Origin: a bacterium
GTDB lineage: Bacteria; UBP6; UBA1177; JAKLFG01
Reading direction: 5' to 3'
NCBI GenBank assembly: GCA_029573155.1
Contig: JAKQHE010000171.1
Coordinates: 1-42,440 of the forward strand
DNA length: 42,440 bases
The notes under the pieces are model-generated. The model saw nothing but the letters and a program-made list of their open reading frames with translations. It did no database searches and was not told the origin of the DNA. Position numbers and translations under genes: made by a program. Shown in pieces: positions 3-37,808 of the stretch (position 1 is the stretch's first letter; each line of letters starts with the position of its first letter).

Positions 3-1946
3 GTCGGTGACAGCGACACCCCGGTCGGCGACAACGACACTCCGATACTCCCCGATGAAGACTCTCCTGTCAGCGACGACCTGCTCTCCGACAGCGACGA
101 TATCATCATCCCCGATATCGACACCTACTGTGATCCGGTGACGACCTGCAACGATAACGGGACCTGCCAGCCCGATGGCTCCTGCCTCTGCGACGAGGGC
201 TACCAAGGGACCTTCTGCGACGCCTGCGACGACGGCTATGTCGGCTACCCCGACTGTTTCGCGTGCGATCCGGCGGTCGTCTGCACCGGCCACGGCACCT
301 GCAAGAACGACGGTTCCTGCGCCTGCTTCGTCGGCTACGACGGGACCGCCTGTGACGACTGTTCCGACGGCTATGTCGGCTATCCCGACTGCTACTATCA
401 GGCATGCATACCGGGGACCCGCAAGTGCAATGGCCTCGGCACGGTCCAGCAGTGCAACACGCTCGGCACGGCGTGGGAGGATGTAGAGAACTGCGGTAGC
501 GGCTCCGAATGTTTCGAGGGCAACTGCCTCAACGAATGTCAACTGGCCGAGGCGAAGGAGAGTTATGTCGGATGCGAATACTGGGGCGCCTTTCTGCAGA
601 ATGTCTCGCCCGACACCTATGCGGTGGTCGTCGCCAATCCGAACGACACCGCGGTAACGGTGACGGTGTACGGCAACGGTGACCTGCAACTCGCCCAGTT
701 CACCGTCAACGCGGGCGCGCTGAACTCCCAGACCTTCGACACATCGCGGCATCTCACTGGTGTCGGCATATTCAACCATGCCTTCAAGATCGTCGCCTCG
801 CGGCCGGTCACCGTGACCCAGATGAACCCCTTCGGCAATGTGCTGACCTATACGAATGACGCGACCCTGCTTCTTCCCAAAGGGGCGCTCGGTCTCCAGT
901 ACTATGCGATGAGTTGGCCCGATTGGAAATATTACGAAGAGGATGGCTGCGACGAGACCGAATACAACTATCCCGGCTATGTGACCGTGATAGCGACCGA
1001 ACCGGGGACCACTTCGGTGACGGTCAAATACAGTGCGGCATCACGAGCCGGCACCGGCGTCGCGGCGCAGGCGGCCGGAAGCACCGCCACCTATTCGCTC
1101 AACCAATATCAGGTGCTCAACCTCAACTCGGCGGGCCCCGGTTGCGGCGACAGCACCTGCTATGGCGCCGACCTCACCGGCAGTTTCATCGAGGCCGACA
1201 AGAGGGTCGCCGTCTTCGGCGGCCACATGTGCACCTATGTGCCGGCCGGGTCTCCCGCCTGCGACCACCTCGAACACCAGATATTCCCGCTCCGCTCGTG
1301 GGGTATGAACTACGCCGCGGTCCGCACCAAACCACGCGGTTCCGAGGCCGATTACTGGAAGATACTCGCCGCGCAGGACGGCACAAGCGTATCGTGGAGC
1401 GGTGGCGTGACCGGTTCGGTAACCCTCAATGCCGGACAGGCCCACCAACTCTCGACGACCGCCGATTTCGTCGTGACCGCCGACAAACCGATATTGCTCG
1501 CCCAGATACTCGCCTCGCAGGATGCCGGCGCGGGCACCGGGGACCCGGCGCTGATGCTCACCGCGCCGAACGAGCAGTTCCGCAAGGACTACATATTCCT
1601 CGTCGCCCCCAACTACGATTACGACCGGCTCACCATCGTCGCGCAGGCCGATACCAACATCACGCTCGACAGCACCTCGATGAGTTCGAACACCTTCACC
1701 GCGATAGCCGGCACCTCGTGGCTGCGCCAGTATGTCGATACGGCCGACGGCGCCCACAAACTGACCGCCGACAAGCCGGTCGGCCTCTATGTGTACGGCT
1801 TCTCGCAGTATGTCTCCTACGCCTACACCGCCGGACTCGACCTCGTCGAGATATACAGTTGCTGGGATCTCAACAGCAACGGCACCTGCGACATCGCGAC
1901 CGAGGACCTGTCGGGCGACGGCGTCTGCAACGAACGCGACTGCTGA
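3..1946 (+). CDS. 5'-truncated surface protein: acidic linker, two laminin-type EGF repeats, IgGFc-binding (FcGBP N-terminal-like) domain, shared C-terminal CWDLN tail
   Basis: The frame is open from base 3 (VGDSDTPVGDNDTP...), so the true start lies upstream of the window. CxCxxGYxGxxCDxCxxGYVGYPDC occurs twice. IgGFc-type motifs: SYVGCEYW, YTNDATLLLP, DLTGSFIEADKRVAVFGGH, CDHLEHQIFP, GDPAL, VGLYVYG, SYAY. Confidence 0.85.
   Translation, partial: VGDSDTPVGDNDTPILPDEDSPVSDDLLSDSDDIIIPDIDTYCDPVTTCNDNGTCQPDGSCLCDEGYQGTFCDACDDGYVGYPDCFACDPAVVCTGHGTCKNDGSCACFVGYDGTACDDCSDGYVGYPDCYYQACIPGTRKCNGLGTVQQCNTLGTAWEDVENCGSGSECFEGNCLNECQLAEAKESYVGCEYWGAFLQNVSPDTYAVVVANPNDTAVTVTVYGNGDLQLAQFTVNAGALNSQTFDTSRHLTGVGIFNHAFKIVASRPVTVTQMNPFGNVLTYTNDATLLLPKGALGLQYYAMSWPDWKYYEEDGCDETEYNYPGYVTVIATEPGTTSVTVKYSAASRAGTGVAAQAAGSTATYSLNQYQVLNLNSAGPGCGDSTCYGADLTGSFIEADKRVAVFGGHMCTYVPAGSPACDHLEHQIFPLRSWGMNYAAVRTKPRGSEADYWKILAAQDGTSVSWSGGVTGSVTLNAGQAHQLSTTADFVVTADKPILLAQILASQDAGAGTGDPALMLTAPNEQFRKDYIFLVAPNYDYDRLTIVAQADTNITLDSTSMSSNTFTAIAGTSWLRQYVDTADGAHKLTADKPVGLYVYGFSQYVSYAYTAGLDLVEIYSCWDLNSNGTCDIATEDLSGDGVCNERDC
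1860..1943 (+). repeat. Shared 28-codon C-terminal module, copy 1 (CWDLNSNGTCDIATEDLSGDGVCNERDC)
   Basis: Near-identical to 4011-4094 and 5989-6072; each copy is followed directly by the stop codon. Confidence 0.95.
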
Positions 1947-1981
1947 TCCCCCCACTTATTGTTGTCCCCCCATATTTTCGT

Positions 1982-2010
1982 TTGACTTTCCCCTTTTCTT
2001 CACCTATAAT
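1982..2010 (+). promoter_or_regulatory. sigma70-type promoter
   Basis: TTGACT-N17-TATAAT upstream of ATG 2055. Confidence 0.8.
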
Positions 2011-2054
2011 CGCCGCGTCGGTTCGATTTAACCATGTGTAAGGGGGCAAAACCC

Positions 2055-4097
2055 ATGAAAACGATCATCTTTCCGGTCGCGGCGCTGAGTCTGTTCTTTT
2101 TCGCCTGTTCTTCCGATGTGGCGAAGATACTGAACGACGACCTTCTCATAGGCGACGGCGTGAATATCCCCGATGATAACGGGAACGACGGGATCACCAA
2201 AGATGATGGCCCGCTGGTCAACGATGACGGCCAGTTGATAAACGACGACGGTCAGGTCATCAATGACGACGGTCAGGTCATCAATGACGACGGTCAGGTC
2301 ATCAACGATGACGGCCAGATCATCAACGACGACGGCCAGATCATCAACGATGACGGCGAGGTCGTCACGGATGACGGTGGTGAAATATCCGACGAGGAAC
2401 TGAATGACGGGTTCTGGCCCGACGAAGAGAACCCCGATAACACCACCCCCGATGACACCACCCCCGACAACGAGACACCCGACGAAGACCTCCCTCAGAT
2501 ATGCACCCCGCTGGAGACAGTTGACTGTCCCTATTCCGGCGATACGAACAAGATCGGCGTGGGTCCTTGCAAGGTCGGGACGAAGCAGTGCAATCTTGAC
2601 GGCACCGACTGGAGCGACTGTTCCGGCGAGGTTCTCCCGGAAGCGACCGACCCCTGCACCGACAGCGTGGATAACGACTGCAACGGCACGGTCAACGATG
2701 GCTACGATGACGGCGCCACCGGCTGCGCCTGTTTGCCGGGCACCCCCACCTCGTGCTACACCGGACCGGTCGGCACGCTCGATGTGGGCATCTGTCATGC
2801 GGGCACCATGACCTGCAATGTCTTGGGGACCGGTTACGGCACCTGCATCAACGAACAGACCCCCCTTGCTACCGACATCTGCGGGAACGGGCTCAACGAC
2901 GACTGCGACGCCGAGACCGACGAAAGTATAGACGCCGACGGCGACGGCTACGGCACCTGCGGCGGCGACTGCTGCGACAACACCAACCGATGCGCCGACC
3001 CGGCGAAGGTCAATCCCGGCGCGGTAGAGGTCGTGGACGACACCGTGGACAACAACTGCAACAACCAACTCAACGAAGACCCGCAACCCGCATGCTCGAG
3101 CGCCGCGAAGTTCAGCGGCACCACCGCGACCGACCTCGTGAACGCCATGGACATCTGTCAGGTCGCCGCGAACGGCTCGTGGGGCATCGTCGGCACACCG
3201 ACCATAACCCGCGCCAGCGGCTCGGGGGCCATCGACAACCTGCAGGTCGCGGTGATGACCCAGTTCGGTACCCACGCGTCAAACCTCGCCATCGCGAACG
3301 CCACGATGGCCTCGCTCTCCTCGGGCCGCGCTCGCGACTCGAACGACCCCAACGCCCCCGATTCCGACACTTACCAATATTACACCGGCAATCCGCCCGC
3401 CGATTTCAGCGCCCCCTACGGCGGCGGGGCCAACCTGCCCCAGAGCAATCCCAACTGCGACAACGGCTCAGGCGCCAACGACGCGACGATGCTGACCGTG
3501 CAGGTCAAGGTGCCGACCAACGCCCTTTCCTTGTCCTTCAACTTCCGGTTCTTCTCGCATGAATACTGGGAATACCAGTGCACCACATACAACGATTTCT
3601 TCATCGCGATGCTCTACACCGGCGCGACGGGCATCCCGGCCGACAAGAATATATCGTTCGATTCGAACGGCAGATACATCAGCGTCAACTCCGAGCAGTT
3701 CTTCACGGTCTGCACGAGCAAGGAGGACGGGAGCGGGTGCGGCGGCACCGACTACATCTGTTCAGACGGCCCCGCCGCGCTTGCCGGCACCGGATTCGAC
3801 ATATGGGAAGAGGGCGGCTGCGATGAGGACGACCATTACAGAGGCGGCGGCACGAAATGGCTTTCGACCGTCGCGCCGGTCGTCCCGGGCGAAACGATAA
3901 CGCTCAAGTTCGTGATATGGGACACCTCCGATCAGGCACTCGACTCGACCGTCATCATCGACAACTTTAAGTGGAGCGCGCAGGGCACGAGCGGTCCTTC
4001 GACCTTCGAGTGCTGGGATCTCAATAAGAACGGCACCTGCGATATCGCCACCGAGGACCAGTCGGGCGATAATGTCTGCAACGAACGCGACTGCTAA
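2055..4097 (+). CDS. Cys/Asp-rich lipoprotein with putative metal-binding (MopE-like) repeats and choice-of-anchor-L-like domain; shared CWDLN tail
   Basis: RBS AAGGGGG before ATG 2055. Lipobox FFFAC. NDDGQxI repeats. NPGAVEV..D.VDNNCN motif. C-domain motifs SLSSG, FNFRFFSHEY.EY.C..YNDFF, NISFD, GGTKWL...APVVPGETITLKFVIWD..D..LDS.V.IDNF.W. Confidence 0.85.
   Translation: MKTIIFPVAALSLFFFACSSDVAKILNDDLLIGDGVNIPDDNGNDGITKDDGPLVNDDGQLINDDGQVINDDGQVINDDGQVINDDGQIINDDGQIINDDGEVVTDDGGEISDEELNDGFWPDEENPDNTTPDDTTPDNETPDEDLPQICTPLETVDCPYSGDTNKIGVGPCKVGTKQCNLDGTDWSDCSGEVLPEATDPCTDSVDNDCNGTVNDGYDDGATGCACLPGTPTSCYTGPVGTLDVGICHAGTMTCNVLGTGYGTCINEQTPLATDICGNGLNDDCDAETDESIDADGDGYGTCGGDCCDNTNRCADPAKVNPGAVEVVDDTVDNNCNNQLNEDPQPACSSAAKFSGTTATDLVNAMDICQVAANGSWGIVGTPTITRASGSGAIDNLQVAVMTQFGTHASNLAIANATMASLSSGRARDSNDPNAPDSDTYQYYTGNPPADFSAPYGGGANLPQSNPNCDNGSGANDATMLTVQVKVPTNALSLSFNFRFFSHEYWEYQCTTYNDFFIAMLYTGATGIPADKNISFDSNGRYISVNSEQFFTVCTSKEDGSGCGGTDYICSDGPAALAGTGFDIWEEGGCDEDDHYRGGGTKWLSTVAPVVPGETITLKFVIWDTSDQALDSTVIIDNFKWSAQGTSGPSTFECWDLNKNGTCDIATEDQSGDNVCNERDC
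2199..2387 (+). repeat. Coding 21-bp tandem repeat (7 core NDDG[QE]xx units plus 2 degenerate flanking units)
   Basis: Units of the form aa[ct]ga[ct]gacgg[ct]cag... start at 2220, 2241, 2262, 2283, 2304, 2325 and 2346. Variation is mostly synonymous. Confidence 0.95.
4011..4094 (+). repeat. Shared C-terminal module, copy 2 (CWDLNKNGTCDIATEDQSGDNVCNERDC)
   Basis: Direct alignment with copies 1 and 3. Confidence 0.95.
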
Positions 4098-4128
4098 GAA
4101 AGATATCTCAACAGAAAGGGGGTGATGC

Positions 4129-6075
4129 ATGACCCGCATCCTGTACCTGCTTGCGGCAGGAGTGATCCTTTTCGTACTCGCCTGCTCCGAGGTGAAAAGC
4201 ACGCCGAACGACGAGGAGGGCGATGACGGCGACGGCATCGTAACGGTCGATACCGACCAAAAGGCCCTTCCCGACACCGTGACCGACACGAAACCCGACG
4301 GCGACACGATCCCGATCGACGGCGACGCTCCGGTCGTCGACGATAACACCCCTATCACCGACGGCGACACCCCGCCCGTCGAGAACGACACCCCGGTCGA
4401 CGACGGCGACGGCATACTCAACGACGAGGATCCCGACGAGATCGATGTCGAGTGGCCCGATACCGATTCCGACACCGTGATATGCACCGCCAACGAGGAG
4501 GTCGCCTGCCCCTATTCCGGCGACCCGCTGACCGAGAATGTCGGCCTCTGCAAGGCGGGCAAAAAGAAATGCTCGCCCGACGGCACCGCATGGAGCACCT
4601 GTTCCGGCGAGGTGCTTCCCGCGGAGAACGACCCCTGCAACGACCTCGACGACAACGACTGTAACGGCACGGTCAACGACGGCTACGCGGACGGCGCCAC
4701 CGGCTGTATCTGTACGCCGAAGGAAGAGACGGCCTGCTACACCGGCCCCACGGGGACCGAAGGCGTCGGCATCTGCCACGCCGGGATCAGCACCTGCAAC
4801 GACTACGGGAACGCGTGGAGTTCCTGTACCGACGAACAGACCCCCGTCACCGAGATATGCGGCAACACCCTCAATGACGACTGCGTCGGCGACGCCGATG
4901 ACGGGCTCGACGAAGATCTCGACGGCTGGACCGTTTGCGAGAACGACTGTTGCGATAGGACCACCCAGTGCGAGAACCCGGCGGTCGTCAATCCCGGCGC
5001 GGTCGAGGTCACGGGCGATACCATCGACAACGACTGTAACGACCAGACCGACGAGGTTCCGACCGGCTGCAGCACGGTGGCGAAGTTCAGCGGCACAACG
5101 GCCCTTGACCTCGTGAACGCGATGGACATCTGCACCACGGCGCTGAACGGCTCGTGGGGCATCGTCGGGACCCCGACGCTGACCCGCGCCAACGGGGCCG
5201 GCTCAATAGACAATCTCCAGATAGCGGTATCACAGCAATTCGGCACCGACGAATCGAACATCGCCATCTTCCCGCCCCCGCCATCAGCCGGAGTACCCGG
5301 CGGCACCATGGCGGTCCTCTCTTCGGGCCGGGCCCGCGACATGAACGACCCCGATGCCACCGCATTGAAGACCTATCGTTACGAGACCTCAAACCTTAAC
5401 TCGGCCCCTGCCGATTTCACCACGCCGCACGGCGGCCTGCCACAGACGAGCGCCACCTGCCCCGCCGGGACCTACGCGAACGATTCGGTGATGCTCACCC
5501 TGCAACTCAAGGTGCCGACCAACGCCCTCTCCTTCTCGTTCAACTTCCGCTTCTTCTCGCAGGAATACTGGAAATGGACCTGCGACACCGATGGCTACAA
5601 CGACTTCTTCATCGCGATGCTTTACACCGGCGCGGCGGGCATTCCGGCCGACAAGAACATATCGTTCGACCAGAACAGCAGTTACATCAGCGTCAACTCG
5701 AGTGCCTTCTTCACCGTCTGCGAGGCGAAGAGCGGCTATACCTGTCCCGATGGTGCCTCCGCTCTTGCAGGAACAGGCTATGGAGAAAAGTATTATTATG
5801 ATGCTACGAACTACGACATGGGCGGAGGCACCAAGTGGCTCACGACCGCCGCGCCGGTCGTGCCGGGAGAGACGATAACGCTCAAGTTCGTGATATGGGA
5901 CACCAACGACCGCGATCGCGATTCGTTGGTCATCATCGACAACTTCAAATGGAGCGCGCAGGGAACGAGCGGTCCCTCCACCTTCGAGTGCTGGGACCTC
6001 AACCAGAACGGCAATTGCGATATCGCGACCGAGGACAAGTCGGGCGACGAGACCTGCAACGAGCGCGACTGCTGA
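4129..6075 (+). CDS. Paralog of 2055-4097: Cys/Asp-rich lipoprotein with choice-of-anchor-L-like domain; shared CWDLN tail
   Basis: RBS AAGGGGG. Lipobox VLAC. Colinear with the upstream paralog from CPYSGD to the C-terminus. Confidence 0.85.
   Translation: MTRILYLLAAGVILFVLACSEVKSTPNDEEGDDGDGIVTVDTDQKALPDTVTDTKPDGDTIPIDGDAPVVDDNTPITDGDTPPVENDTPVDDGDGILNDEDPDEIDVEWPDTDSDTVICTANEEVACPYSGDPLTENVGLCKAGKKKCSPDGTAWSTCSGEVLPAENDPCNDLDDNDCNGTVNDGYADGATGCICTPKEETACYTGPTGTEGVGICHAGISTCNDYGNAWSSCTDEQTPVTEICGNTLNDDCVGDADDGLDEDLDGWTVCENDCCDRTTQCENPAVVNPGAVEVTGDTIDNDCNDQTDEVPTGCSTVAKFSGTTALDLVNAMDICTTALNGSWGIVGTPTLTRANGAGSIDNLQIAVSQQFGTDESNIAIFPPPPSAGVPGGTMAVLSSGRARDMNDPDATALKTYRYETSNLNSAPADFTTPHGGLPQTSATCPAGTYANDSVMLTLQLKVPTNALSFSFNFRFFSQEYWKWTCDTDGYNDFFIAMLYTGAAGIPADKNISFDQNSSYISVNSSAFFTVCEAKSGYTCPDGASALAGTGYGEKYYYDATNYDMGGGTKWLTTAAPVVPGETITLKFVIWDTNDRDRDSLVIIDNFKWSAQGTSGPSTFECWDLNQNGNCDIATEDKSGDETCNERDC
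5989..6072 (+). repeat. Shared C-terminal module, copy 3 (CWDLNQNGNCDIATEDKSGDETCNERDC)
   Basis: Direct alignment with copies 1 and 2. Confidence 0.95.
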
Positions 6076-10393: not shown

Positions 10394-12775
10394 CTACTCC
10401 TCGACCAATATGCAGGGGGCATCTATCTTCAGCGAGACATCGAAGCCGTCGTCAACGGTGATCTGCGGGGTCGGCGTGTTGTAGGTCTGCGGTGCGAGGA
10501 AGAACCGCGTCGCCTGCGTACCGATCGGCGGGAAGAAGGCCTTGGCGCGGCTCCCGGTCCCCGAAAGTTCGATGAAGCCGCGCGACGAGGCGGCCCCGGT
10601 GACCGCGGCACCGTTCGCCGTGAGGTTGCCGGTAAAGGCGACCGCCTTAAGATCGCCCTGCACGACCGTGTCGGCCGACACATCGACCAGTTGCGCTATC
10701 GGGAAACGGAATATCGAATCGTCGCTCCCCTCCTTCACATGCAGGTTGAGGTAGAGGTCCCAACTGGGGCTTCTCAGCACGAGAAAGAAGGGATGCGGCT
10801 CGGCCTGCGTCGCGGTGATGACGGACGAGCCGAGCGTGTTCTTGTCGTTCGCCGCCGAGAAGTCGTAACGGTCTATCGCCGGGTAGGCGGTCAGGAGTTC
10901 CGCGAGCGACAGGCCGTTCACGGTGAGGTCGAGTCCCATCTTCGCCGTCCCTATGTCTACTATCTTGGCTGTGATGTCGGTGTCGCCGACGGTGAGATCG
11001 GTGTTGACCACCCCTTTCTGTTCGTAGCCGAGGAGCGACGCACCTTTATAGACGACATGATACGAGGCGGCGGGTGCAAAGAACGAATAGGCGCCCCCCG
11101 TCAGGTCCTTGAGGCGCGCCACCGGCGTTTCGGTCTGGGTATCGACATCGCGCAGGAAAAGCAGGTCGTCGTCGGTCTCCGGAAGCGCCGCGCCGTTGTA
11201 GGTGACGGTGCCCGACACCTGCGTCGGGACGACCACCAGATCAAGCGTCATGTCGGTGGTAAAGCCACCGGAGCCGTCGGTGAACTGGAAATTCTCGGTC
11301 CCGTTGTTATTCAGCCGGACGCTGAACGGCAGGTAATTGGTCATGCCGGCGACATCGTTGAAATAGCCGTCGAATATGAGCGAGAAGGAGAGCGGCGCGT
11401 AGTCGTAGGTCGTGCAGTCGATATCGGCGCAGACCCTCTGGCGCCGGAGAACGAGCGCCTCGTAGGCGTAATCGTCGCCCGATATGCCGAGGTCCTTGAT
11501 CGTCGTGGTGCCGGCGGCGATGCTCATCACTTTTAACTTGCCGCGCGTGCAAAGCGGTTCGTCCACGGTGCAGGAGGTCAGCGCCGGGAAGGGGCCGCCC
11601 GCCGTCCGAAGCGAGATGGTGCCGTGGATACGCCCCATGTCGAGCGCGACCGAACCGCTGTCGGCGGCGAGATCCTTCCATTCGGCTATCTTCTGGAAAC
11701 TGTAGGGATAGTCGGCAATGTCGCTTAGATAGGTGACCACATAGGTGATCCCCTCGTTGGCGATGACCTCGGCGCTGTAGTTCTGGTCGGCGCCCAGATC
11801 GGATATCAGGGCGAGCGATATCGACTCAAAGGGGGGATTGCGCACGATGGCGAGTACGCCGCTGTCCACCGTCGCGCCATCCATCACGACCGGGCCGGCC
11901 ACCGTGGTGGTCACGATATCTATCGGTTCGCTCAACGCCTCCGTGAGTTTCAGCGCCGTGTCACCGAGGTAGACGCGGCCGGTGAAGAGCGGGGCGCCGC
12001 CCGCCAGATGGCCGGTAAAACTCACCGTGTAGGTCCCGGCGGGCATGACCCGGGTGAAGGCGCCGAACTCGGCATACGGCACGGTGAAGGAGTAACTGCC
12101 GGAGGTGAAGGTTATCGAGGTCGCCGTGTCCTCCCCCGCCGCAAGCGCGGGAAAGGCCGCCCCGTTCTTGGTGACGCTCCCCTGCAGGACATAGAGCGGA
12201 AGATCGATGTTGAGCGTCGCGGCGGCCGTGACGGTCAGTTTCTTGTCCATGTCGACCATGGTGTTGTCGGGATCGGTCGGCGCGCTCTTGGGTCCGCGGT
12301 AGAACAGTTTATAGGTCCCCGCGGGAAATTCGATGACCGTGCCGGAAAGCGACGGGACGAGAGTCGCTATCTTGAAATCGCTGCCGGTCGCCTCGTTCTT
12401 TCCCCACAGTTCACCCGCAACATGGGCGTCGTCATCGACGCCGCCGACCGTTATGGTGCCGATGGTCACCGCGTGTAGTTTCACATCGAACGCCACCGCG
12501 TCGCCTTCCCGCGCGAGGATGCAGGGGCCGGTGTAGACATCGTCATCCGGCACGAGCGTGTCGGCGAGTTCGTCGACCGCATCGTCCGGCAGGGAGTCGT
12601 CGGTCGCCGTGTCGATATCCTGTTCGTTATCGGGCTCGCTCGTGTCGGGTTCGCACTGGTGGGTCGCATCGTCCCAGTGGTAACCGGCGGGACACGACTC
12701 GCTACCGCCCGAGGAGCAGGAAACGCCGAGCAGCAGCAGCGCCGCGCCCGTGATAACGGCAAAAAGATGACGCAT
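10394..12775 (-). CDS. Large hypothetical lipoprotein of repeated beta-sandwich (carboxypeptidase-regulatory-like) modules
   Basis: RBS GGAGG before ATG 12775. Lipobox LGVSC. CPAGYHWD...C motif, acidic linker, and recurring [VL]xG[ST]VT.NG motifs about every 100 aa. Confidence 0.7.
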   Translation of the reverse strand: MRHLFAVITGAALLLLGVSCSSGGSESCPAGYHWDDATHQCEPDTSEPDNEQDIDTATDDSLPDDAVDELADTLVPDDDVYTGPCILAREGDAVAFDVKLHAVTIGTITVGGVDDDAHVAGELWGKNEATGSDFKIATLVPSLSGTVIEFPAGTYKLFYRGPKSAPTDPDNTMVDMDKKLTVTAAATLNIDLPLYVLQGSVTKNGAAFPALAAGEDTATSITFTSGSYSFTVPYAEFGAFTRVMPAGTYTVSFTGHLAGGAPLFTGRVYLGDTALKLTEALSEPIDIVTTTVAGPVVMDGATVDSGVLAIVRNPPFESISLALISDLGADQNYSAEVIANEGITYVVTYLSDIADYPYSFQKIAEWKDLAADSGSVALDMGRIHGTISLRTAGGPFPALTSCTVDEPLCTRGKLKVMSIAAGTTTIKDLGISGDDYAYEALVLRRQRVCADIDCTTYDYAPLSFSLIFDGYFNDVAGMTNYLPFSVRLNNNGTENFQFTDGSGGFTTDMTLDLVVVPTQVSGTVTYNGAALPETDDDLLFLRDVDTQTETPVARLKDLTGGAYSFFAPAASYHVVYKGASLLGYEQKGVVNTDLTVGDTDITAKIVDIGTAKMGLDLTVNGLSLAELLTAYPAIDRYDFSAANDKNTLGSSVITATQAEPHPFFLVLRSPSWDLYLNLHVKEGSDDSIFRFPIAQLVDVSADTVVQGDLKAVAFTGNLTANGAAVTGAASSRGFIELSGTGSRAKAFFPPIGTQATRFFLAPQTYNTPTPQITVDDGFDVSLKIDAPCILVEE

Positions 12776-12808
12776 GCGGACCTCCATCGTTCCGTTCAAG
12801 GATGGGCC

Positions 12809-29897: not shown

Positions 29898-31628
29898 ATG
29901 GACTGGAAAACGGTAGCGTTCGAGGTCTGCGGCGGTCTCGGCCTGTTCCTCATGGGCATGCATATCCTGTCGGAGGGCATGCAGAAGGTCTCGGGCGACC
30001 GTCTCCGCAGGATACTCGGCTTCCTCACACAAAATCGCTTTATGGCGATCTTCGTCGGGCTTTCCATCACTTCGGTCATCCAGTCGAGTTCGGCCACCAC
30101 CGTCATGGCGGTCGGCTTCGTCAACGCGAGCCTGCTGTCGCTCGAACAGGCGATCGGCGTCATCCTCGGCGCCAACATCGGCACCACCATCACCGGCTGG
30201 CTCGTGTCGCTGTCGATAGTACAGTACGCGATGGTCATCATCGCCGCCGGCGTCCTTCTGAAGTTCATCGGGCGAAACGAAACGGTGCGCTACAGCGGCG
30301 AGGCGATATTCGGACTCGGCATCCTGTTCCTCGGGATGAACCTCATGAGCGACGGTCTGGCCCCTCTGCGCGATGACAAGGAGTTCGTTTCCTTCTTCAC
30401 CAAGGTCGACGGCCGCACCTACTCCAGCGTATTCATCGGGGTTCTCATCGGCACGGTGGCGACGGCCCTTGTCCAGTCGAGTTCGGCAACGCTCGGCATC
30501 ATCATCGCGCTGGCCTCACAGGGGCTGCTTTCCTTCCCGGCAGCCATCGCGCTGGTGCTCGGCACCAATATCGGCACCACCGTCACGGCACTGTTAGCGA
30601 GCATCGGGACCAATTACCACGCTAAACGGGCCGCCGCCGCGCATATCTTGTTCAATTTCTTCGGGGTCATCATCGTCCTCATCGTCTTCTACCCCTTCCT
30701 TCGCATGGTCGACCTCTTCCTGCCGGGCGACCCCGACATGGTGATACGGACCGCTGAAGAGGCGGCGAAGTACGGTTTCGGCATCGGCGCCAAGCCACTG
30801 GCCGGCGTCCATATCGCGCTCGCCCATTCGCTGTTCAACATCACCAATGTCGTCATCTTCACCCCGCTCATCGCCTTCCTCGCCTTCGTCGTGAAGAAGA
30901 TAGTTCCTGAACCGAAGGCGAAACTGCCCAAGACGCCGCATCAGTTCGCCCACATCCACTACGGTCTCATCGCGACCCCCGCGCTGGGTATCATAGAGTC
31001 GGAAAAGGAACTCTATGCCATGGCCGAACGGGTCAAGAAGAACTCGAAGCGCATCCGCGATATCCTCGGCGGAAAACGGGAAGCGGGCACAGCGGCCGAG
31101 AAGATAGAGAAGAACGAAGAACTCATCGACGAATACCGCATGGCGATCACCGAGTTCCTCCTGTCGCTGGCGCAACGTTCGCTGTCCCGCGAAGACGCGG
31201 CGAAGGTCGGCAATTACATCACCTGCGCTCACAACCTCGAAAAATACGCCGACTATGTCACCAACATGACCCGCGTTTACCTGAAGATGAAGAGTGACAA
31301 CCTCGTCCTCTCCGATGCAGCGCGCACCTCTCTGCAAGATATCGTAAATGATATCGAGGAGTTCTACGAATCGACCATAGTCCCGTTGAGCGGGGTCGAG
31401 GTTGACGCAAAAAATTTCCTCGCTACGGCAACGATGCGTAAAAAGGAGATAAAGGATCGTATCCGCGCCGCGAAGATGGGCCATTTCCAGCGGCTTCAGG
31501 AAGGAACCTGTAGAGGAGAGGCTTCTATGTCCTATATCGATATCCTCGTCAATGTCGACGGCATGGTCTCGCAGGTCCACAATATCGCCGAAACGCTCAC
31601 GCTCTCCAAATTCTCGGGTATCGCCTGA
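29898..31628 (+). CDS. Na+/phosphate cotransporter (NptA/YjbB, SLC34-like) with PhoU-like C-terminal domain, copy 1
   Basis: GGLGLFL.GM, two QSSS motifs, GANIGTT and GTNIGTT, LEKYADY. Confidence 0.92.
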   Translation: MDWKTVAFEVCGGLGLFLMGMHILSEGMQKVSGDRLRRILGFLTQNRFMAIFVGLSITSVIQSSSATTVMAVGFVNASLLSLEQAIGVILGANIGTTITGWLVSLSIVQYAMVIIAAGVLLKFIGRNETVRYSGEAIFGLGILFLGMNLMSDGLAPLRDDKEFVSFFTKVDGRTYSSVFIGVLIGTVATALVQSSSATLGIIIALASQGLLSFPAAIALVLGTNIGTTVTALLASIGTNYHAKRAAAAHILFNFFGVIIVLIVFYPFLRMVDLFLPGDPDMVIRTAEEAAKYGFGIGAKPLAGVHIALAHSLFNITNVVIFTPLIAFLAFVVKKIVPEPKAKLPKTPHQFAHIHYGLIATPALGIIESEKELYAMAERVKKNSKRIRDILGGKREAGTAAEKIEKNEELIDEYRMAITEFLLSLAQRSLSREDAAKVGNYITCAHNLEKYADYVTNMTRVYLKMKSDNLVLSDAARTSLQDIVNDIEEFYESTIVPLSGVEVDAKNFLATATMRKKEIKDRIRAAKMGHFQRLQEGTCRGEASMSYIDILVNVDGMVSQVHNIAETLTLSKFSGIA

Positions 31629-31732: not shown

Positions 31733-31750
31733 AGAAGAGTGGAGAGACAT

Positions 31751-33484
31751 GTGGACTGGAAAACGATAGCGTTCGAGGTCTTCGGCGGACTTGGTCTGTT
31801 CCTTCTTGGCATGAAGATCATGTCGGAAGGCATGCAGAAGGTCGCGGGCGACCGGCTCCGCAAGGTACTTGGCTTCCTGACACAGAATCGCTTCATGGCG
31901 ATATTGGTCGGCATGACGGTCACGGCGGTCATCCAGTCGAGTTCGGCCACCACCGTCATGACCGTCGGGTTCGTCAACGCGCAACTCATGACCCTCACGC
32001 AGGCGATCGGCGTCATACTCGGCGCCAACATCGGCACCACGGTCACCGGCTGGCTCGTGTCGCTCGCGGTGGTCAAATACGCGATGGTCATCATCGGTAT
32101 CGGCGTCCTGTTGCGCTTCGCCGGTCACAACGAGACTGTTCGCTACAGTGGCGAAGCGATATCGGGACTCGGCCTGCTCTTTCTCGGCATGACCACGATG
32201 AGCGACGGACTCGCCCCTTTGCGCGACAGCCCCGGGTTCGTCCATTTCTTCACCATGGTCGACGGGGTGACCTACCCCAGTATCCTTCTCGGTGTCTTCA
32301 TCGGCACGGTGACCACCGTAGCGGTCCAGTCGAGTTCGGCCACCATCGGTATCGCCATCGCGCTCGCCACGCAGGGCCTGCTCACTTTTCCCGGCGCGGT
32401 CTCACTGATATTGGGCGACAACATCGGCACCACCATCACGGCGCTGTTGGCGAGCATCGGGACCAATCACCACGCCAAACGGGCCGCCTTCGCCCATACG
32501 ATGTTCAATGTGTTCGGCGTTGTCATCATCCTGATCATTTTCTTTCCCTTCGTCGCGCTCGTGAACACCTTCATCCCGCAGGACGCCGATCTGACGATAC
32601 GGACCGCCGAGGAGGCGGCGCGCTACGGCATGGCGATCGGCGCGAAGCCCTTCATCGGGCCCCATGTAGCCATGGCCCACACCATGTTCAATGTCACCAA
32701 CGTCATCTTCTTCACGCCGCTTATCGGCTTCCTCGCCTTTATGGTCAGGAAGATAGTGCCCGAGCCGAAGGCGAAACCGTCAAAGGGGGTCCGCCAGTTC
32801 GTTCATATCCATTACGGGCTGGTCGAAACACCTGCTTTGGGCATCCTTGAGTCGGAAAAGGAACTCTATGCCATGGCCGAACGGGTCAAGAAGAACTCGA
32901 AGCGCATCCGCGACATCCTCGGCGACAAACGCGACGCAGGCGTGGCAGCCGAAAAGATAGAGAAGAACGAGGAACTCATCGACGAATACCGCAAGGCGAT
33001 AACAGAATTCCTGCTCTCGCTCTCCCAACGGTCATTGTCGCGCGAGGATGCCGGGAAGGTCGGCAACTACATCACCTGCGCTCACAACCTCGAAAAATAC
33101 GCCGACTATGTCACCAACATGACCCGCGCCTACCTCAAGATGAAGAGTGACAACCTTATCCTTTCCGACGCGGCGCGCACCTCTCTGTACGATATCGTGA
33201 GCGACATCGAGGAGTTCTACGAAGCGACCATCGTCCCGCTCAGCGGCGTCGAGGTCGACGCGAAGAATTTCCTCGCCACCGCCACGACGCGCAAGAGGGA
33301 GATAAAGGAACGGGTGCGTGCCGCCAAGATGGGACATTTCGAGCGGCTGCAGGCAGGCACCTGCAAGGGAGAGGCCTCGATGGCCTATGTCGATATCCTC
33401 GTCAACATCGACGGCATGGTCTCACAGGTCCACAACATCGCCGAGACGCTCACGCTTTCGAAGTTCTCGGGAACCTCCGCGTAA
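31751..33484 (+). CDS. Na+/phosphate cotransporter, copy 2
   Basis: GTG start after GGAGAG. Colinear, highly similar paralog of 29898-31628. Confidence 0.92.
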   Translation: MDWKTIAFEVFGGLGLFLLGMKIMSEGMQKVAGDRLRKVLGFLTQNRFMAILVGMTVTAVIQSSSATTVMTVGFVNAQLMTLTQAIGVILGANIGTTVTGWLVSLAVVKYAMVIIGIGVLLRFAGHNETVRYSGEAISGLGLLFLGMTTMSDGLAPLRDSPGFVHFFTMVDGVTYPSILLGVFIGTVTTVAVQSSSATIGIAIALATQGLLTFPGAVSLILGDNIGTTITALLASIGTNHHAKRAAFAHTMFNVFGVVIILIIFFPFVALVNTFIPQDADLTIRTAEEAARYGMAIGAKPFIGPHVAMAHTMFNVTNVIFFTPLIGFLAFMVRKIVPEPKAKPSKGVRQFVHIHYGLVETPALGILESEKELYAMAERVKKNSKRIRDILGDKRDAGVAAEKIEKNEELIDEYRKAITEFLLSLSQRSLSREDAGKVGNYITCAHNLEKYADYVTNMTRAYLKMKSDNLILSDAARTSLYDIVSDIEEFYEATIVPLSGVEVDAKNFLATATTRKREIKERVRAAKMGHFERLQAGTCKGEASMAYVDILVNIDGMVSQVHNIAETLTLSKFSGTSA

Positions 33485-34519: not shown

Positions 34520-34966
34520 TCAGACCTCGTTGTCACTCTTGTTCTTGACCAATTGTTTCGTCAGGTTGCGGATGCGCCGGTTGAGCACCTTGATGATGCC
34601 GATGGCCACCTCGTCGCGCTGTTTCATGATCTCGTAGAAATCGTCGCGATCTATCTTGAGCAGCGTCACATCGCTCAGCGACACGACATCGGCCGAACGG
34701 GGTTGCGAGTCCAGTATCGCCATCTCACCGAAATAGCCGCCCTGCCGGATGGTATCTATCTTGCGGTCGCCCGATACGACATCCACCTCTCCCTTCACGA
34801 TGATGAACAATTCCCTTCCCAACTCGCCCTCGTGGACGATATAGGTACCACGGTCCATCGTCACCTCCTCGATGACGAACGCGATGTCGGCCAGCACCTC
34901 GCCCGGAATGTCGCTGAACAGCTCGACATTCTTGAGCGCGAGTACCTTTTCAACCGTCGTAAGCAT
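34520..34966 (-). CDS. Stand-alone cyclic-nucleotide-binding domain protein
   Basis: EKVLALKNVELFS, IVHEGELG, IIVKGEV, YFGEMAILDSQPRSA. Own RBS (GGGAGG). Confidence 0.88.
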   Translation of the reverse strand: MLTTVEKVLALKNVELFSDIPGEVLADIAFVIEEVTMDRGTYIVHEGELGRELFIIVKGEVDVVSGDRKIDTIRQGGYFGEMAILDSQPRSADVVSLSDVTLLKIDRDDFYEIMKQRDEVAIGIIKVLNRRIRNLTKQLVKNKSDNEV

Positions 34967-37808
34967 GGGATCGCCCTCCCGTTCCATCAAAGGTGATCTG
35001 ACAGCCGGCGGCCTTGTACCACGCCGCGTAGCTCGAAACATTCTTGGCGCCGTCGCTGAGCAGGAAATTCACATCGTCGTCGGAGACCGACGTACCGAGC
35101 CGCATCGCGGCGAACAGGGCCGATTCACGGACGAGCGGCGACGGATCGTACAGGAACAGCATGACCTTGTCACCCATCTCGACGACCTCTTCCACCGCGA
35201 TGAGGTGCAGGGTCACCGCGCGCACCCAATCGTTGTCGTCGGTCAGGAATATCTCAAGGATGTGCTGGTACTCTGGGGTCTTTATCTTGAACGCGGCGAA
35301 GCCCTGCGCGAGTTTCTCCTGCTCGTCTATCGCTTCGATGAGCGGCACGAGCACGCGCCGGATATCCTTGTCGACGATGTTGTCGACCAGTTCGACCGCT
35401 GTCGAGCGCTGTTCTTTCGAAACATAGCGCTGAGAGATGTTGAAATAGATGGAATCGAAGAGTTTCTGGCCGTACATGATGGAAAGGAGCGAGAATATCC
35501 GCTGGAGGCACGAGAGCAGTTTGGTGTCTATCACATCGGAAAGATAGGACAGATCGGTCTTTGCCCGCATGGATGACTTATAGTAAAGCTGCTGGAAATA
35601 CAAGTAGAATTCGCGGAACAGGTGCCGCCTGAGGGTCTCCTGACTGATGAGGACATGGTAATCGGTGCGCATCATGATACGCTTGAGACTTTCGAGCAGG
35701 ACATTGCGTAGTTCGTCAGATTTATCGCCCAGATTGTCCATGAGTACCGGAATGACCTCGCGCGAGGATATCTCGCCAAGCATCTTGGCGACCGCCATTT
35801 TGAGTTCGAAATTCTCGAGCGCGTTATCCAGAACGCTCTTCGCCGGCTCGATGATGCGCTCGCCGAAACCGGCCAACGCCTTGGACACCTCGAGACTCAC
35901 CGGTTTATCGAGCAACATGAAGAACAGTTTCGGTATGAAGACCTCTGACCGCATCTTGGTCGTCGCCTTGACCGCCTCGCGGCGTACCTGCGGGTCACGA
36001 TCGCTTAAGAACTCGAACACCTGTTGCTGCATGTTCTGCTGACCGATCTCGCCGAGGATATAGGCCGCCGCGACGCGCCGTTCGGGATCGGGCGATTCGG
36101 CCAACTGCTTGAGGTACGGGGCCGCCGTCATAATGCCCGATATGCCGCAGTATTTGATGAGCGCGATGACCGCCGCCGAGAGTATCTGCAGGTTCGGGTT
36201 CTCGAGGAAGGTCGCTATGTACCGGTGCGACTTCTCCATCTGCATGTAGCCGTAGGTCAGTATTGCATCCTTGAGCACCTCGTCGCTCCCGCTCTTCATG
36301 AGTTTGAGTATCTCGAAAGTGTAGAAACGGGACTCCATGGTCCGCAGGATGCGCAGTATCTTGGTCTTTATCTTGGGAGAGACATCTTCGGACAGGAGCG
36401 GCAGGAAATAGCGACCGAGATAGAAATAACGCCCTTTTTCTATCATGTCGAGCGCCATGAGCACTTCGTCGTCGTTCTCTGAGGTCATCGCCTCGACGAT
36501 GATGGATTCTATCATGTTCTGCCGAACGGTCACATCTTCGTTACCGAGCCGTTTCTTTTTGATGTTATCCTGCAGGACGAGAAGGTATTCTTTCCGAAGC
36601 AGGAGTATCGTGGTTATCCACGCCGCACCAAATATGACGACGACGATGCTGATGAAACGGTGATCGACCCCAAGGTAGGTCATCCCGTAGATGGCGAGGC
36701 CGGCGACGCCGGCGATGAGTGGCTTGAGGATGCCGTCTATCACCGCCTTGGCACGGCTCCGCAACTTGGGGTCGACCGGGATGTAGAGCAGTTGCACCGC
36801 CGCGTCGTTCACGGTGTAGCGGAAGGCGAAATCAGAGGCGCGCGCCATCGTGATGAACCAGATACCCGGTATCAGGAAGAACATCGCCGAGAACCCGGTG
36901 ATCATCGCGGGCAGGATGAGCAGACTCAGGAATATGCTCCAGCGCAGGAGCCACGAGGTGGCGATGAGTTGGAAGAACAGCGAGAAGAAGCCGCTCGCGA
37001 AGGCGTAGACCATGCCGAAGAACCCCGCCAGTTCCTTTTCCGAGAAATGCTCCCTCGCCTCCATCTTGAACTGGTAGTCCACGAAGTTCACGATGATAAA
37101 GGTGACGACGGTCACCAGAGCGATATAGCGGAAATAGGGCTGGGTGAAAAGACTTACCGGCGCGTGTCTGGCGGTCTTCTGGACCGACCGTATCACGACG
37201 CTCCGCTGGAGTTTTGACTTGTAGGTCTCCCCCATCCGGCGCACGAGGTAGAGGCACAACACCATGAAGAGCGCGTTGATGAACAGCAAGTTCTCGACCT
37301 TGACCAGATGGACGAGCCACTTGACCGAATAGCCGGCCACGAGGCTCGCGATGATGCCGCCGATGCCTATGAAACTGAGTATCCGTTTCGCCTCGCGTGA
37401 GTCGAGCAGTTCGTTGGTGAACGACCAGAATTGGAAGGTCATGAAAGCGCCGATGACCTCGACGAGGATGTAAAGTCCCGGATAACTGAACTGGAATCCG
37501 ACATGGATGAGCCCGATGAACACGACGGTGAGCGAGATGCTCAGGAACAGGATGGTGCTGATGAGGGTATCGAGCCGGTATAGCGAACTGCGCCGCGTGT
37601 AGAGCCAGGTGAGCATCGAAACGCTTGCGGCGACAAAGATGTACATGAGCGGCAGTTGCGAGACATCGTACCGTTTCAGGAACAGCGTATCGCGGACGAT
37701 GCGGCCCTGCACATAGGTAGCGACGACGAGGAAATTGTACAGGAACAGGAGCCCGGCGCGGGTCTGCTCCTCCTCGCGGATGTTGAACAACCGGTAGATG
37801 AGCTTCAT
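34950..37808 (-). CDS. NTT/TLC (Npt1/Npt2-like ATP/ADP translocase family) MFS domain fused to HEAT repeats
   Basis: RDTLFL, LPLMYI, QFWSF.NE..D.REAKR, VDYQFK, RYTVND...QLLYIPV....R.RAKA.IDG. The C-terminal half has HEAT repeats (RVAAAYILGEIG, VRREAVKA, LVRESALFA). Confidence 0.85.
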   Translation of the reverse strand: MKLIYRLFNIREEEQTRAGLLFLYNFLVVATYVQGRIVRDTLFLKRYDVSQLPLMYIFVAASVSMLTWLYTRRSSLYRLDTLISTILFLSISLTVVFIGLIHVGFQFSYPGLYILVEVIGAFMTFQFWSFTNELLDSREAKRILSFIGIGGIIASLVAGYSVKWLVHLVKVENLLFINALFMVLCLYLVRRMGETYKSKLQRSVVIRSVQKTARHAPVSLFTQPYFRYIALVTVVTFIIVNFVDYQFKMEAREHFSEKELAGFFGMVYAFASGFFSLFFQLIATSWLLRWSIFLSLLILPAMITGFSAMFFLIPGIWFITMARASDFAFRYTVNDAAVQLLYIPVDPKLRSRAKAVIDGILKPLIAGVAGLAIYGMTYLGVDHRFISIVVVIFGAAWITTILLLRKEYLLVLQDNIKKKRLGNEDVTVRQNMIESIIVEAMTSENDDEVLMALDMIEKGRYFYLGRYFLPLLSEDVSPKIKTKILRILRTMESRFYTFEILKLMKSGSDEVLKDAILTYGYMQMEKSHRYIATFLENPNLQILSAAVIALIKYCGISGIMTAAPYLKQLAESPDPERRVAAAYILGEIGQQNMQQQVFEFLSDRDPQVRREAVKATTKMRSEVFIPKLFFMLLDKPVSLEVSKALAGFGERIIEPAKSVLDNALENFELKMAVAKMLGEISSREVIPVLMDNLGDKSDELRNVLLESLKRIMMRTDYHVLISQETLRRHLFREFYLYFQQLYYKSSMRAKTDLSYLSDVIDTKLLSCLQRIFSLLSIMYGQKLFDSIYFNISQRYVSKEQRSTAVELVDNIVDKDIRRVLVPLIEAIDEQEKLAQGFAAFKIKTPEYQHILEIFLTDDNDWVRAVTLHLIAVEEVVEMGDKVMLFLYDPSPLVRESALFAAMRLGTSVSDDDVNFLLSDGAKNVSSYAAWYKAAGCQITFDGTGGRSHAYDG

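Follow-up and report, generated by a model that had tools for sequence, protein, structure and literature searches.

A 28-residue C-terminal module with paired EF-hand-like loops in adjacent surface-protein genes and its relation to a family of modules in collagen-like proteins

Known calcium-loop modules and the module of this locus

The closest described systems are the dockerins, the EF-hand pair, the TSP3 and LNR units, and the non-collagenous interruptions and cystine knots of collagens. Type I dockerins (PF00404) are small C-terminal modules of secreted proteins with two D-x-N-x-D-G-x-x-x-x-x-D Ca2+ loops, and the GC-type dockerin (NF041540) combines two Ca2+ loops with bracketing cysteines; dockerins are about 60-70 residues long, and PF00404 represents a duplicated segment of ~22 residues, in which a loop is followed by a helix. 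The EF-hand pair (PF00036, PF13499) consists of paired 12-residue loops, which are in contact at position 8. TSP3 (PF02412) and LNR (PF00066) are small extracellular units with little secondary structure, in which Asp/Asn-rich Ca2+ sites are accompanied by disulfides; TSP3 units come in tandem strings. In collagens, non-collagenous interruptions and cystine knots lie in phase between Gly-X-Y runs, with cysteines at both junctions.

The module found at this locus resembles all of these systems and differs from each. It measures 27-28 residues from first to last cysteine, its two loops abut with no helix after either, and most members of its family, unlike dockerins, are internal repeats in collagen-like proteins, often arranged in tandem, as TSP3 units are. 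Compared with 28 members of the family, PF00404 matched two (best E 0.039, below cut-off), EF-hand_1 three (best E 0.0016, all below cut-off) and LNR nine (best E 0.027, below cut-off, over only ~12 residues), while no match at E<=10 was obtained with PF02412 and none with NF041540. The module lacks the E and F helices, is extracellular and is predicted to be disulfide-locked, and the position-8 contact of the EF-hand pair would here be covalent, via a putative disulfide. LNR has six cysteines (three disulfides), whereas the module has four or two. In contrast to the cystine knots of collagen, its junction cysteines most likely pair within one chain, forming a Ca2+-binding knob, and not across three chains.

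Three adjacent genes and their tails

In the window (the whole stretch of 42,440 nucleotides that was analysed), three consecutive genes of the forward strand end in a copy of the module. Gene 1 (3..1946), the 5' end of which is cut by the window start, encodes a Cys-rich EGF-like region, an IgGFc_binding domain (PF17517, E 1.1e-79, open-frame residues 286-599, about 858-1799) and the tail (1860-1943). Gene 2 (2034..4097) encodes a lipobox-like N-terminus, a linker of Asp-rich 7-residue repeats (21-nt tandem repeats, 2218..2378), MopE-type Cys motifs, a choice-of-anchor-L domain (NF038133, E about 2.2e-14, residues 427-643, about 3312-3962), a Gly/Ser/Pro linker and the tail (4011-4094). Gene 3 (4129..6075) is a paralogue of gene 2 (62% identity), with an N-terminal linker that contains Asp/Pro-rich 21-nt tandem repeats (4316..4410), MopE-type Cys motifs, a choice-of-anchor-L domain (E 2e-13, residues 396-604, about 5314-5940), a linker and the tail (5989-6072). 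The N-termini of genes 2 and 3, lipobox-like as read from sequence, are putative lipid anchors. In sister-family orthologues, a collagen Gly-X-Y stalk is found at the place of the Asp-rich repeats of gene 2.

The three tails are of the four-Cys form with two Ca-type loops, and 23 of their 28 residues are invariant; the stop codons (1944-1946, 4095-4097 and 6073-6075) follow directly, leaving Cys as the last residue. All of this bears out the preliminary description, which had reported three adjacent genes ending in one 28-residue module. It had also described the head of gene 1 as unrelated to those of genes 2 and 3, and all-against-all BLASTP placed them in separate clusters. The model of the gene 3 head (pLDDT 73.6) gave only weak matches of the jelly-roll type, with domains of MAM, gingipain 'cleaved adhesin', CBM27 and Epa adhesin (E 5e-3 to 3e-2), and the choice-of-anchor-L head may be described as a beta-sandwich, nothing more specific.

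Pairwise comparison of the window tails gave pS of 0.31-0.40, pN of 0.07-0.13 and pN/pS of 0.24-0.44, in agreement with the earlier interpretation of their many synonymous differences as a mark of selection at the protein level. Identity was 62-83% in the tails versus 59-72% in the preceding 220 residues, and conservation of the tail is not clearly above that of the head. The tails of genes 1 and 2 are identical in 25 of 28 residues (pS 0.31), while the tail of gene 1 and that of its paralogue on contig C21 share 62% identity (pS 0.49); tails of adjoining genes are thus somewhat closer than tails of same-head paralogues. Concerted evolution of adjoining tails is weakly suggested by this genome and the related genome G003, but not by G002.

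Loops, cysteines and distribution of the module family

Column statistics were obtained by hmmalign from 637 modules of the 150 best representative proteins. The first and last cysteines are present in 100% of modules, the Trp in 98% and the Asp in 99%. The profile reads D-x-N-x-N-G-x-[C]-D-x-x-E in loop 1 and D-x-N-x-D-G-x-[C/hydrophobic]-[DNT]-x-x-D in loop 2, and columns 5-17 and 18-29 agree with the EF-hand loop pattern (ligands 1, 3, 5, 9 and 12; Gly 6); loop 1 of the window copies has 13 residues, one more than the usual 12. The inner cysteines, at position 8 of each loop, are both present in 332 modules, both absent in 305 and never found singly. This perfect covariation of the inner pair implies nested disulfides, probably C1-C4 and C2-C3, and the loop pattern suggests Ca2+ binding by both loops. 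The window tails share all the features that define the module, namely a C-W-D start, a D-C end, two D/N-rich loops, a length of 27-28 residues and inner cysteines that are both present or both absent; all three match the 28-sequence module profile (E 1e-13 to 8e-12).

For a 30-residue tail with 28 aligned modules, AlphaFold2 gave a mean pLDDT of 93.7 and a fold dominated by loop, in which two short turns of helix occur. No PDB match at E<=0.001 was obtained by Foldseek with this model (the top one, at E 2.3, was a dockerin chain), and VIA-align in wide mode gave no Z>=2; with so small a model, neither result carries weight. The best score of the tail in the ESM Atlas, 0.79, is below the level at which that tool reports more than a lead. 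The preliminary description had assigned both halves of the tail to the EF-hand/dockerin Ca2+-loop pattern and had regarded the tail as a Ca2+- and disulfide-stabilised unit. The fit of both halves is confirmed by the profile of 637 modules, in which the four cysteines behave as two disulfides, and the loops, the Cys covariation and the AlphaFold2 fold are what point to a stabilised unit of this kind.

The search of 1.84 billion representatives assigned 1195 clusters to the family at E<=1e-3. Pfam and NCBIfam contain no model for it, the six tails of this genome had no NCBIfam match at E<=10, and the module profile found no PDB chain similar in sequence (0 hits at E<=10). No description of such a unit was found in searches of the literature on the motif, DUF7151, choice-of-anchor domains (among the papers listed) and collagen/EF-hand proteins, or in passages of PMC11923368. 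Judged by record titles, its members come from Gammaproteobacteria, Bacteroidota, Polyangiaceae, Planctomycetota, Thermoplasmata, Halobacteria and further taxa.

In many phyla, and in viral contigs with the same arrangement, the module is mostly internal, often tandem, and lies in phase within Gly-X-Y collagen-like repeats. At least three consecutive Gly-X-Y triplets occur in 137 of the 150 top proteins, and a run of at least three triplets lies within 15 residues of 519 of 645 modules. The frequency of Gly is 64% at position -9, 72% at -6 and 89% at -3 upstream of the module, and 81% at +2, 72% at +5 and 62% at +8 downstream. Internal copies reach 17 in one protein; in sister genomes, arrays of 8-9 detected modules were found in beta-helix/collagen/DUF7151 proteins, and 2-3 copies in a 5'-nucleotidase and a Kelch protein. 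Peptidase_S74 and DUF7151 are found on module carriers; those examined consist for the most part of collagen-like fibres and of surface proteins rich in Cys, with some extracellular multihaem cytochromes. The statement in the preliminary description that CWDLN.NG-type motifs occur inside other bacterial proteins is right. The tail is neither limited to the three window genes nor a known domain integral to the heads, since the module also occurs apart from them.

Carriers of the terminal form

The tail HMM, run against all six-frame open reading frames of the genome, gave six hits (E 1.3e-18 to 9.8e-9; next E 9.9), among them the window tails of genes 1, 2 and 3 (E 5.7e-18, 1.6e-18 and 8.8e-18, respectively). 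Four carriers have choice-of-anchor-L heads and two have IgGFc_binding heads; the three outside the window, on contigs C13, C242 and C21, have one extra residue after the last Cys. Two collagen-like proteins of the same genome (contigs C146 and C40) carry internal modules, set among Gly-X-Y repeats as elsewhere in the family.

Among 87 module-bearing open reading frames (79 loci), 29 end in the module, all in the four-Cys form; their record titles are only 'bacterium', 'uncultured bacterium', 'uncultured Spirochaetales' and 'Candidatus Sumerlaeota'. Copies at the very C-terminus were observed in relatives of this genome alone, and on no more than two head types. Choice-of-anchor-L heads account for 14 of 16 carriers from relatives and for 18 of 23 database proteins, and IgGFc_binding heads for the other 2 and 5, respectively; all 23 database proteins keep the ...NERDC end. 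A database search with a query that included head residues matched choice-of-anchor-L orthologues only. In this genome, as in the related genomes G001, G003 and G004, genes for the two head types, both with this tail, lie next to each other, and the terminal form is kept across several families of the order. Across sister families the carrier locus is syntenic with acyl-CoA dehydrogenase and ETF genes, which suggests its vertical descent; no conserved non-carrier gene was found beside the carriers.

Possible roles of the terminal copy

The tail is a member of the module family and is probably, though far from certainly, an autonomous Ca-loop micro-domain that acts here as a distal cap and is inherited vertically, and not a docking or sorting signal. 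The micro-domain of 27-28 residues would consist of two contiguous 12-residue Ca2+ loops of the EF-hand/dockerin type without flanking helices, its ends tied where the first and last cysteines pair in one disulfide, and position 8 of loop 1 joined to position 8 of loop 2 by a second one. Members of the family usually sit, in phase, within triple-helical fibres of the collagen-like type, in phages and archaea as well as in bacteria. Fixed in the lineage of this genome is the four-Cys form, as the last domain of surface proteins with putative N-terminal lipid anchors, behind choice-of-anchor-L and IgGFc_binding-type heads, where it is most likely a Ca2+- and disulfide-stabilised distal cap; it would have descended vertically together with the choice-of-anchor-L architecture, with a single transfer to the neighbouring IgGFc_binding head family.

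The preliminary description had proposed a docking or assembly system, in which the heads plug together or onto a common scaffold; such a scaffold could be the module-bearing collagen-like fibres of the cell, reached via Ca2+-dependent contacts between modules. The dockerin-like loop chemistry, the two collagen-like proteins with internal modules and the strictly terminal position are consistent with this proposal; that position and the conservation of ...NERDC seem to go beyond what a generic cap would require, and the same tail on two unrelated heads encoded side by side fits a shared partner or a hetero-complex. However, the tail is found on only two head types, most copies of the module are internal repeats, and the carriers have no conserved partner gene beside them. 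The cohesin model PF00963 had 0 matches at E<=0.01 in this genome, which is 92.9% complete and in which a divergent cohesin fold could escape detection. The best scores in genome scans with dockerin models, 13.4 bits for PF00404 (cut-off 22.9) and 14.6 bits for NF041540 (cut-off 29; contig C167), were not at a tail. No Pfam family matches the candidate cohesin-like partner named earlier (10394-12799), and sister genomes lack it at their syntenic loci. A docking role is on this evidence unlikely. A trimer clasp, in which three terminal copies come together and fasten the far end of an adhesin trimer, is suggested by the presence of the module inside obligate trimers (collagen helices and S74-chaperoned fibres), by Peptidase_S74 and DUF7151 on carriers, and by the N-terminal collagen stalk of choice-of-anchor-L carriers in sister families; it is a little less likely still, as this genome's family has 7-residue Asp-rich repeats in place of the stalk and a module tied by the predicted C1-C4 disulfide could equally be a side knob without interchain contacts. 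Slightly less probable than the clasp is the idea that the helix-less, disulfide-locked pair of EF loops is a general Ca2+-dependent 'knuckle' of collagen-like fibres in prokaryotes and phages, its four-Cys form being co-opted in this lineage as a terminal plug; it would form a minimal, cohesin-free, 28-residue docking system that hangs, via contacts between modules, the two kinds of lipoprotein heads on each other or on the module-bearing collagen fibres of the cell.

Choice-of-anchor domains, as NCBIfam names them, by definition precede C-terminal anchoring signals in other lineages, and this use elsewhere speaks against a cap. A conserved motif that ends the protein behind a choice-of-anchor-L domain could be a signal for export or sorting that a dedicated machine recognises and perhaps removes, in the place held elsewhere by PEP-CTERM, LPXTG or T9SS domains. 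This role, also raised in the preliminary description, is highly improbable: read from its residues, the tail is acidic, without any hydrophobic segment or helix and without a basic tail, its 28 residues fall far short of the 80-100 or so of the T9SS beta-sandwich domain, lipoprotein-type N-termini are already present, and the module is also internal. Among the known C-terminal sorting signals, PEP-CTERM, LPXTG, MYXO-CTERM and the T9SS CTD were considered and rejected; no NCBIfam sorting-signal model matched at E<=10. Equally improbable, and already disfavoured, is a product of local recombination or gene conversion without a role of its own. The slightly greater likeness of adjoining tails than of tails of head paralogues accords with it and speaks against the cap (as does, for the cap alone, the pLDDT of only 59-76 of the tail within a 324-residue model), but pS of 0.31-0.80 and pN/pS of 0.24-0.59 indicate long-standing purifying selection, and the terminal form has persisted in several families of the order.

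The interpretation of the window as a new docking system is accordingly replaced by a more modest one. A very small and very common extracellular domain, missed by current libraries, now has defined boundaries, two loops and a putative disulfide map. If its Ca2+ binding is true, the module would be about the smallest self-contained pair of EF loops known, and would offer a useful model and a building block for designed collagen-like materials.

Genes carrying the C-terminal module

Three consecutive genes on the forward strand of the window end in the same 28-residue module. Gene 1 (3–1946), the 5′ end of which is cut by the window, encodes EGF-like cysteine motifs, an IgGFc_binding domain (PF17517, E 1.1e-79) and the tail (1860–1943). 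Genes 2 (2034–4097) and 3 (4129–6075) each encode a lipobox-like N-terminus, MopE-type cysteine motifs, a choice-of-anchor-L domain (NF038133, E 2e-14 and 2e-13, respectively) and the tail (4011–4094 and 5989–6072). The tail has the pattern C-W-D-L-N-x-N-G-x-C-D-I-A-T-E-D-x-S-G-D-x-x-C-N-E-R-D-C. As stated in the preliminary description, 23 of its 28 residues are identical in the three copies and cysteine is the last residue, with the stop codon directly after it in all three genes; the likeness of gene 1 to genes 2 and 3, described as beginning abruptly at CWD, does start at the first cysteine of the tail. Protein-level selection had been deduced from synonymous differences, and the values for the three tails (pS 0.31–0.40, pN 0.07–0.13) show such selection, not recent copying.

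The C-terminal 324 residues of gene 3 were modelled with pLDDT 73.6 and pTM 0.78 as a beta-sandwich that a coil linker of about 11 residues connects to the tail, which has pLDDT 59–76; the head gave only weak matches of the jelly-roll type in the PDB. Tandem repeats of 21 nt, located at 2218–2378 and 4316–4410 and also at 1–44, encode Asp-rich units of seven residues in the N-terminal linkers of the carriers. At this site, orthologues from sister families contain a collagen Gly-X-Y stalk instead of the Asp-rich repeats, which suggests two interchangeable kinds of stalk.

A search of all six-frame ORFs of the window's genome (2.69 Mb, 288 contigs, 92.9% complete) with a tail HMM, a check proposed earlier, revealed six carriers, three of them outside the window, and no other match below E 9.9. 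The additional carriers are choice-of-anchor-L paralogues on contigs C13 and C242 and an IgGFc_binding paralogue on contig C21, the tails of which each have one residue beyond the last cysteine. Identity between paralogues of this genome is 62–83% in the tail versus 59–72% in the preceding 220 residues; thus, conservation of the tail does not markedly exceed that of the head. The two-cysteine form of the module was found between Gly-X-Y runs in two collagen-like proteins of the same genome, one of 416 aa with two modules, encoded on contig C146, and one of 341 aa with a single module, encoded on contig C40, and both frames also contain DUF7151-like motifs. Orthologous 5′-nucleotidases (Metallophos and 5_nucleotid_C), encoded on contig C273 of this genome and at locus L022 of the related genome G012, contain two to three partly degenerate modules in the N-terminal region.

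Among other genes of the window, an alpha-amylase of 1026 aa (PF00128; 6152–9232, forward strand) is located directly after the three carriers; its N-terminus is lipobox-like, and repeated Cys-rich EGF-like units fill about 500 residues before the catalytic domain. Tandem paralogous genes at 29898–31628 and 31739–33484 (forward strand) encode Na/Pi cotransporters with a PhoU domain. The 952-aa frame at 34950–37808 (reverse strand) matches the TLC-type ATP/ADP transporter (PF03219, E 4e-13) and contains HEAT repeats, an unusual fusion.

Structure of the module

The structure of the module was deduced from 637 full modules of the best 150 of 1195 proteins, aligned to the profile. In this set the first and last cysteines are conserved in 100% of modules, tryptophan in 98% and the following aspartate in 99%. 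Columns 5–17 read D-x-N-x-N-G-x-[C]-D-x-x-E and columns 18–29 read D-x-N-x-D-G-x-[C or V/F/Y/W]-[D/N/T]-x-x-D, in line with the earlier observation that both halves of the tail resemble Ca2+ loops; the module consists of two canonical EF-hand/dockerin loops of 12 residues, joined directly to each other, and it is predicted to bind Ca2+. Loop 1 is longer by one residue in about half of the modules of the best 150 proteins and in the window tails. Among 628 modules measured in the same proteins, the span from the first (C1) to the last (C4) cysteine is most often 27 residues (305 modules) or 28 residues (280 modules). Both inner cysteines, C2 and C3, are present in 332 modules of this set and neither in 305, while a single one was never found; such covariation suggests a C2–C3 disulfide, leaving C1–C4 as the second putative bond. 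C2 and C3 occupy position 8 of their respective loops. In EF-hand pairs, the two loops touch through the position-8 residue. The AlphaFold2 model of a 30-aa tail, built with an alignment of 28 rows, has a mean pLDDT of 93.7; apart from two short helical turns, it consists mainly of loop.

Distribution of the module and its collagen context

When the profile built from 28 modules was run over 1.84 billion cluster representatives, 1195 proteins matched at E ≤ 1e-3, of which 325 passed E ≤ 1e-10 and 54 passed E ≤ 1e-30; a single protein contained as many as 17 matched stretches. In a species-level scan (one genome each), 129 of 177 candidate stretches were confirmed and 79 loci were retained, the record titles of which include Woeseiaceae, other Gammaproteobacteria, Bacteroidota, Polyangiaceae, Planctomycetota, Trueperaceae, Peribacteria, Thermoplasmata and Halobacteria. 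The module is also present on three viral contigs; on one of them, L116, the frame 656–4687 encodes a collagen-like protein of 1344 aa, probably a phage fibre, with four four-cysteine modules about 80 residues apart between Gly-X-Y runs. Matches were found in 32 of 41 related genomes. In the window's own family they lie at the ends of frames of 480–810 aa; in sister families of the same order the four-cysteine unit also forms arrays of 8–9 detected modules in proteins of about 850–970 aa, beside beta-helix, collagen-like triplets and DUF7151, and two or three copies are present in a 5′-nucleotidase and a Kelch protein.

Uninterrupted runs of three or more Gly-X-Y triplets occur in 137 of the best 150 of 1195 proteins, and such a run lies no more than 15 residues away from 519 of 645 modules. 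Glycine is found at −9, −6 and −3 before C1 in 64, 72 and 89% of modules of these proteins, and at +2, +5 and +8 after C4 in 81, 72 and 62%; this periodicity shows that the module is set in phase into the triple-helix repeat. Pfam domains of carriers are Collagen, DUF7151, Peptidase_S74 (tail-fibre chaperone) and beta-helix, with multihaem cytochrome domains in carriers of the Woeseiaceae type, and no Pfam model was ever placed over the module itself. Multihaem c-type cytochromes (Cytochrome_cB, MtrC/MtrF-like, c7) are encoded at L047, L049, L053, L077 and similar loci with gammaproteobacterial (including Woeseiaceae) and deltaproteobacterial titles; they have a short N-terminal collagen-like run followed by one module, and so resemble cytochromes held outside the cell by a collagen-type tether.

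Neither Pfam nor NCBIfam yielded a model that matches the module, nor did the PDB yield a matching chain, and the part of the literature accessible to the search contained nothing on such a unit. The tail belongs to a family, so far uncatalogued, of EF-loop pairs that lack helices and are probably locked by disulfides; this family acts mainly inside collagen-like fibres.

Terminal position and possible role of the tail

The 79 loci contain 87 module-bearing frames, including two that run past the locus edge, so that their ends cannot be judged. The module ends 29 frames, 0–2 residues before the stop codon and always in the four-cysteine form. In 56 frames it is internal or near the N-terminus (91 two-cysteine, 12 four-cysteine and one three-cysteine modules), and a Bacteroidetes-titled frame with SprB and DUF7619 ends six residues past it. 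Record titles of terminal carriers are all generic ('bacterium', 'uncultured bacterium', 'uncultured Spirochaetales', 'Candidatus Sumerlaeota'). The heads of 16 terminal carriers from relatives are choice-of-anchor-L in 14 and IgGFc_binding in two. Among 5.8 billion proteins, a word-based search picked out 23, in each of which the last cysteine is the final residue; PF26766, from a newer Pfam release and confined among them to choice-of-anchor-L-type proteins, is assigned to 18 and PF17517 to five. No accession is common to the two groups (n = 23), so the newer release does not cover the tail either. The module is a repeat unit of arrays and collagen-like proteins and not only a terminal tag; its use at the extreme C-terminus was seen only in relatives of this genome, on these two head types.

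Docking of different heads onto a common partner, or a clasp locking the distal end of a trimer, would agree with the strict terminal position, the conserved tail end, the adjacency of two head types and the slightly greater likeness between tails of neighbouring genes. The proposed comparison with dockerin and EF-hand profiles gave no score above cut-off: Pfam matches to 28 modules were sub-threshold (LNR in 9, best E 0.027; EF-hand_1 in 3, 0.0016; Dockerin_1 in 2, 0.039), the six tails had no NCBIfam match at E ≤ 10, and the cut-off of the GC-type dockerin NF041540 was not reached. No Cohesin match was found in the window's genome (92.9% complete), and its Dockerin_1 and dockerin_GC matches are below cut-off and away from the tails. 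In this genome and in the related genomes G001, G003 and G004, genes with IgGFc_binding and choice-of-anchor-L heads are direct neighbours, and synteny across sister families extends to acyl-CoA dehydrogenase and ETF genes. Comparison of 14 stretches, which include 24 terminal carriers, revealed no conserved non-carrier neighbour as a candidate partner. The protein at 10394–12799 (reverse strand), an 801-aa lipoprotein-like frame without a Pfam family at E ≤ 1e-5, had been put forward as such a partner; it lies outside this synteny and has no conserved place next to the carriers of sister genomes. A docking tag is consequently considered unlikely, and a clasp is given a still smaller probability. 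With regard to sorting, no hydrophobic stretch was found in the tail.

In this lineage, two families of putatively lipid-anchored surface proteins have the four-cysteine form as their fixed final domain. We lean, with a modest degree of confidence, towards the tail as a distal cap, stabilised by Ca2+ and disulfides, which arrived together with the choice-of-anchor-L architecture and was transferred a single time to the head family next to it.
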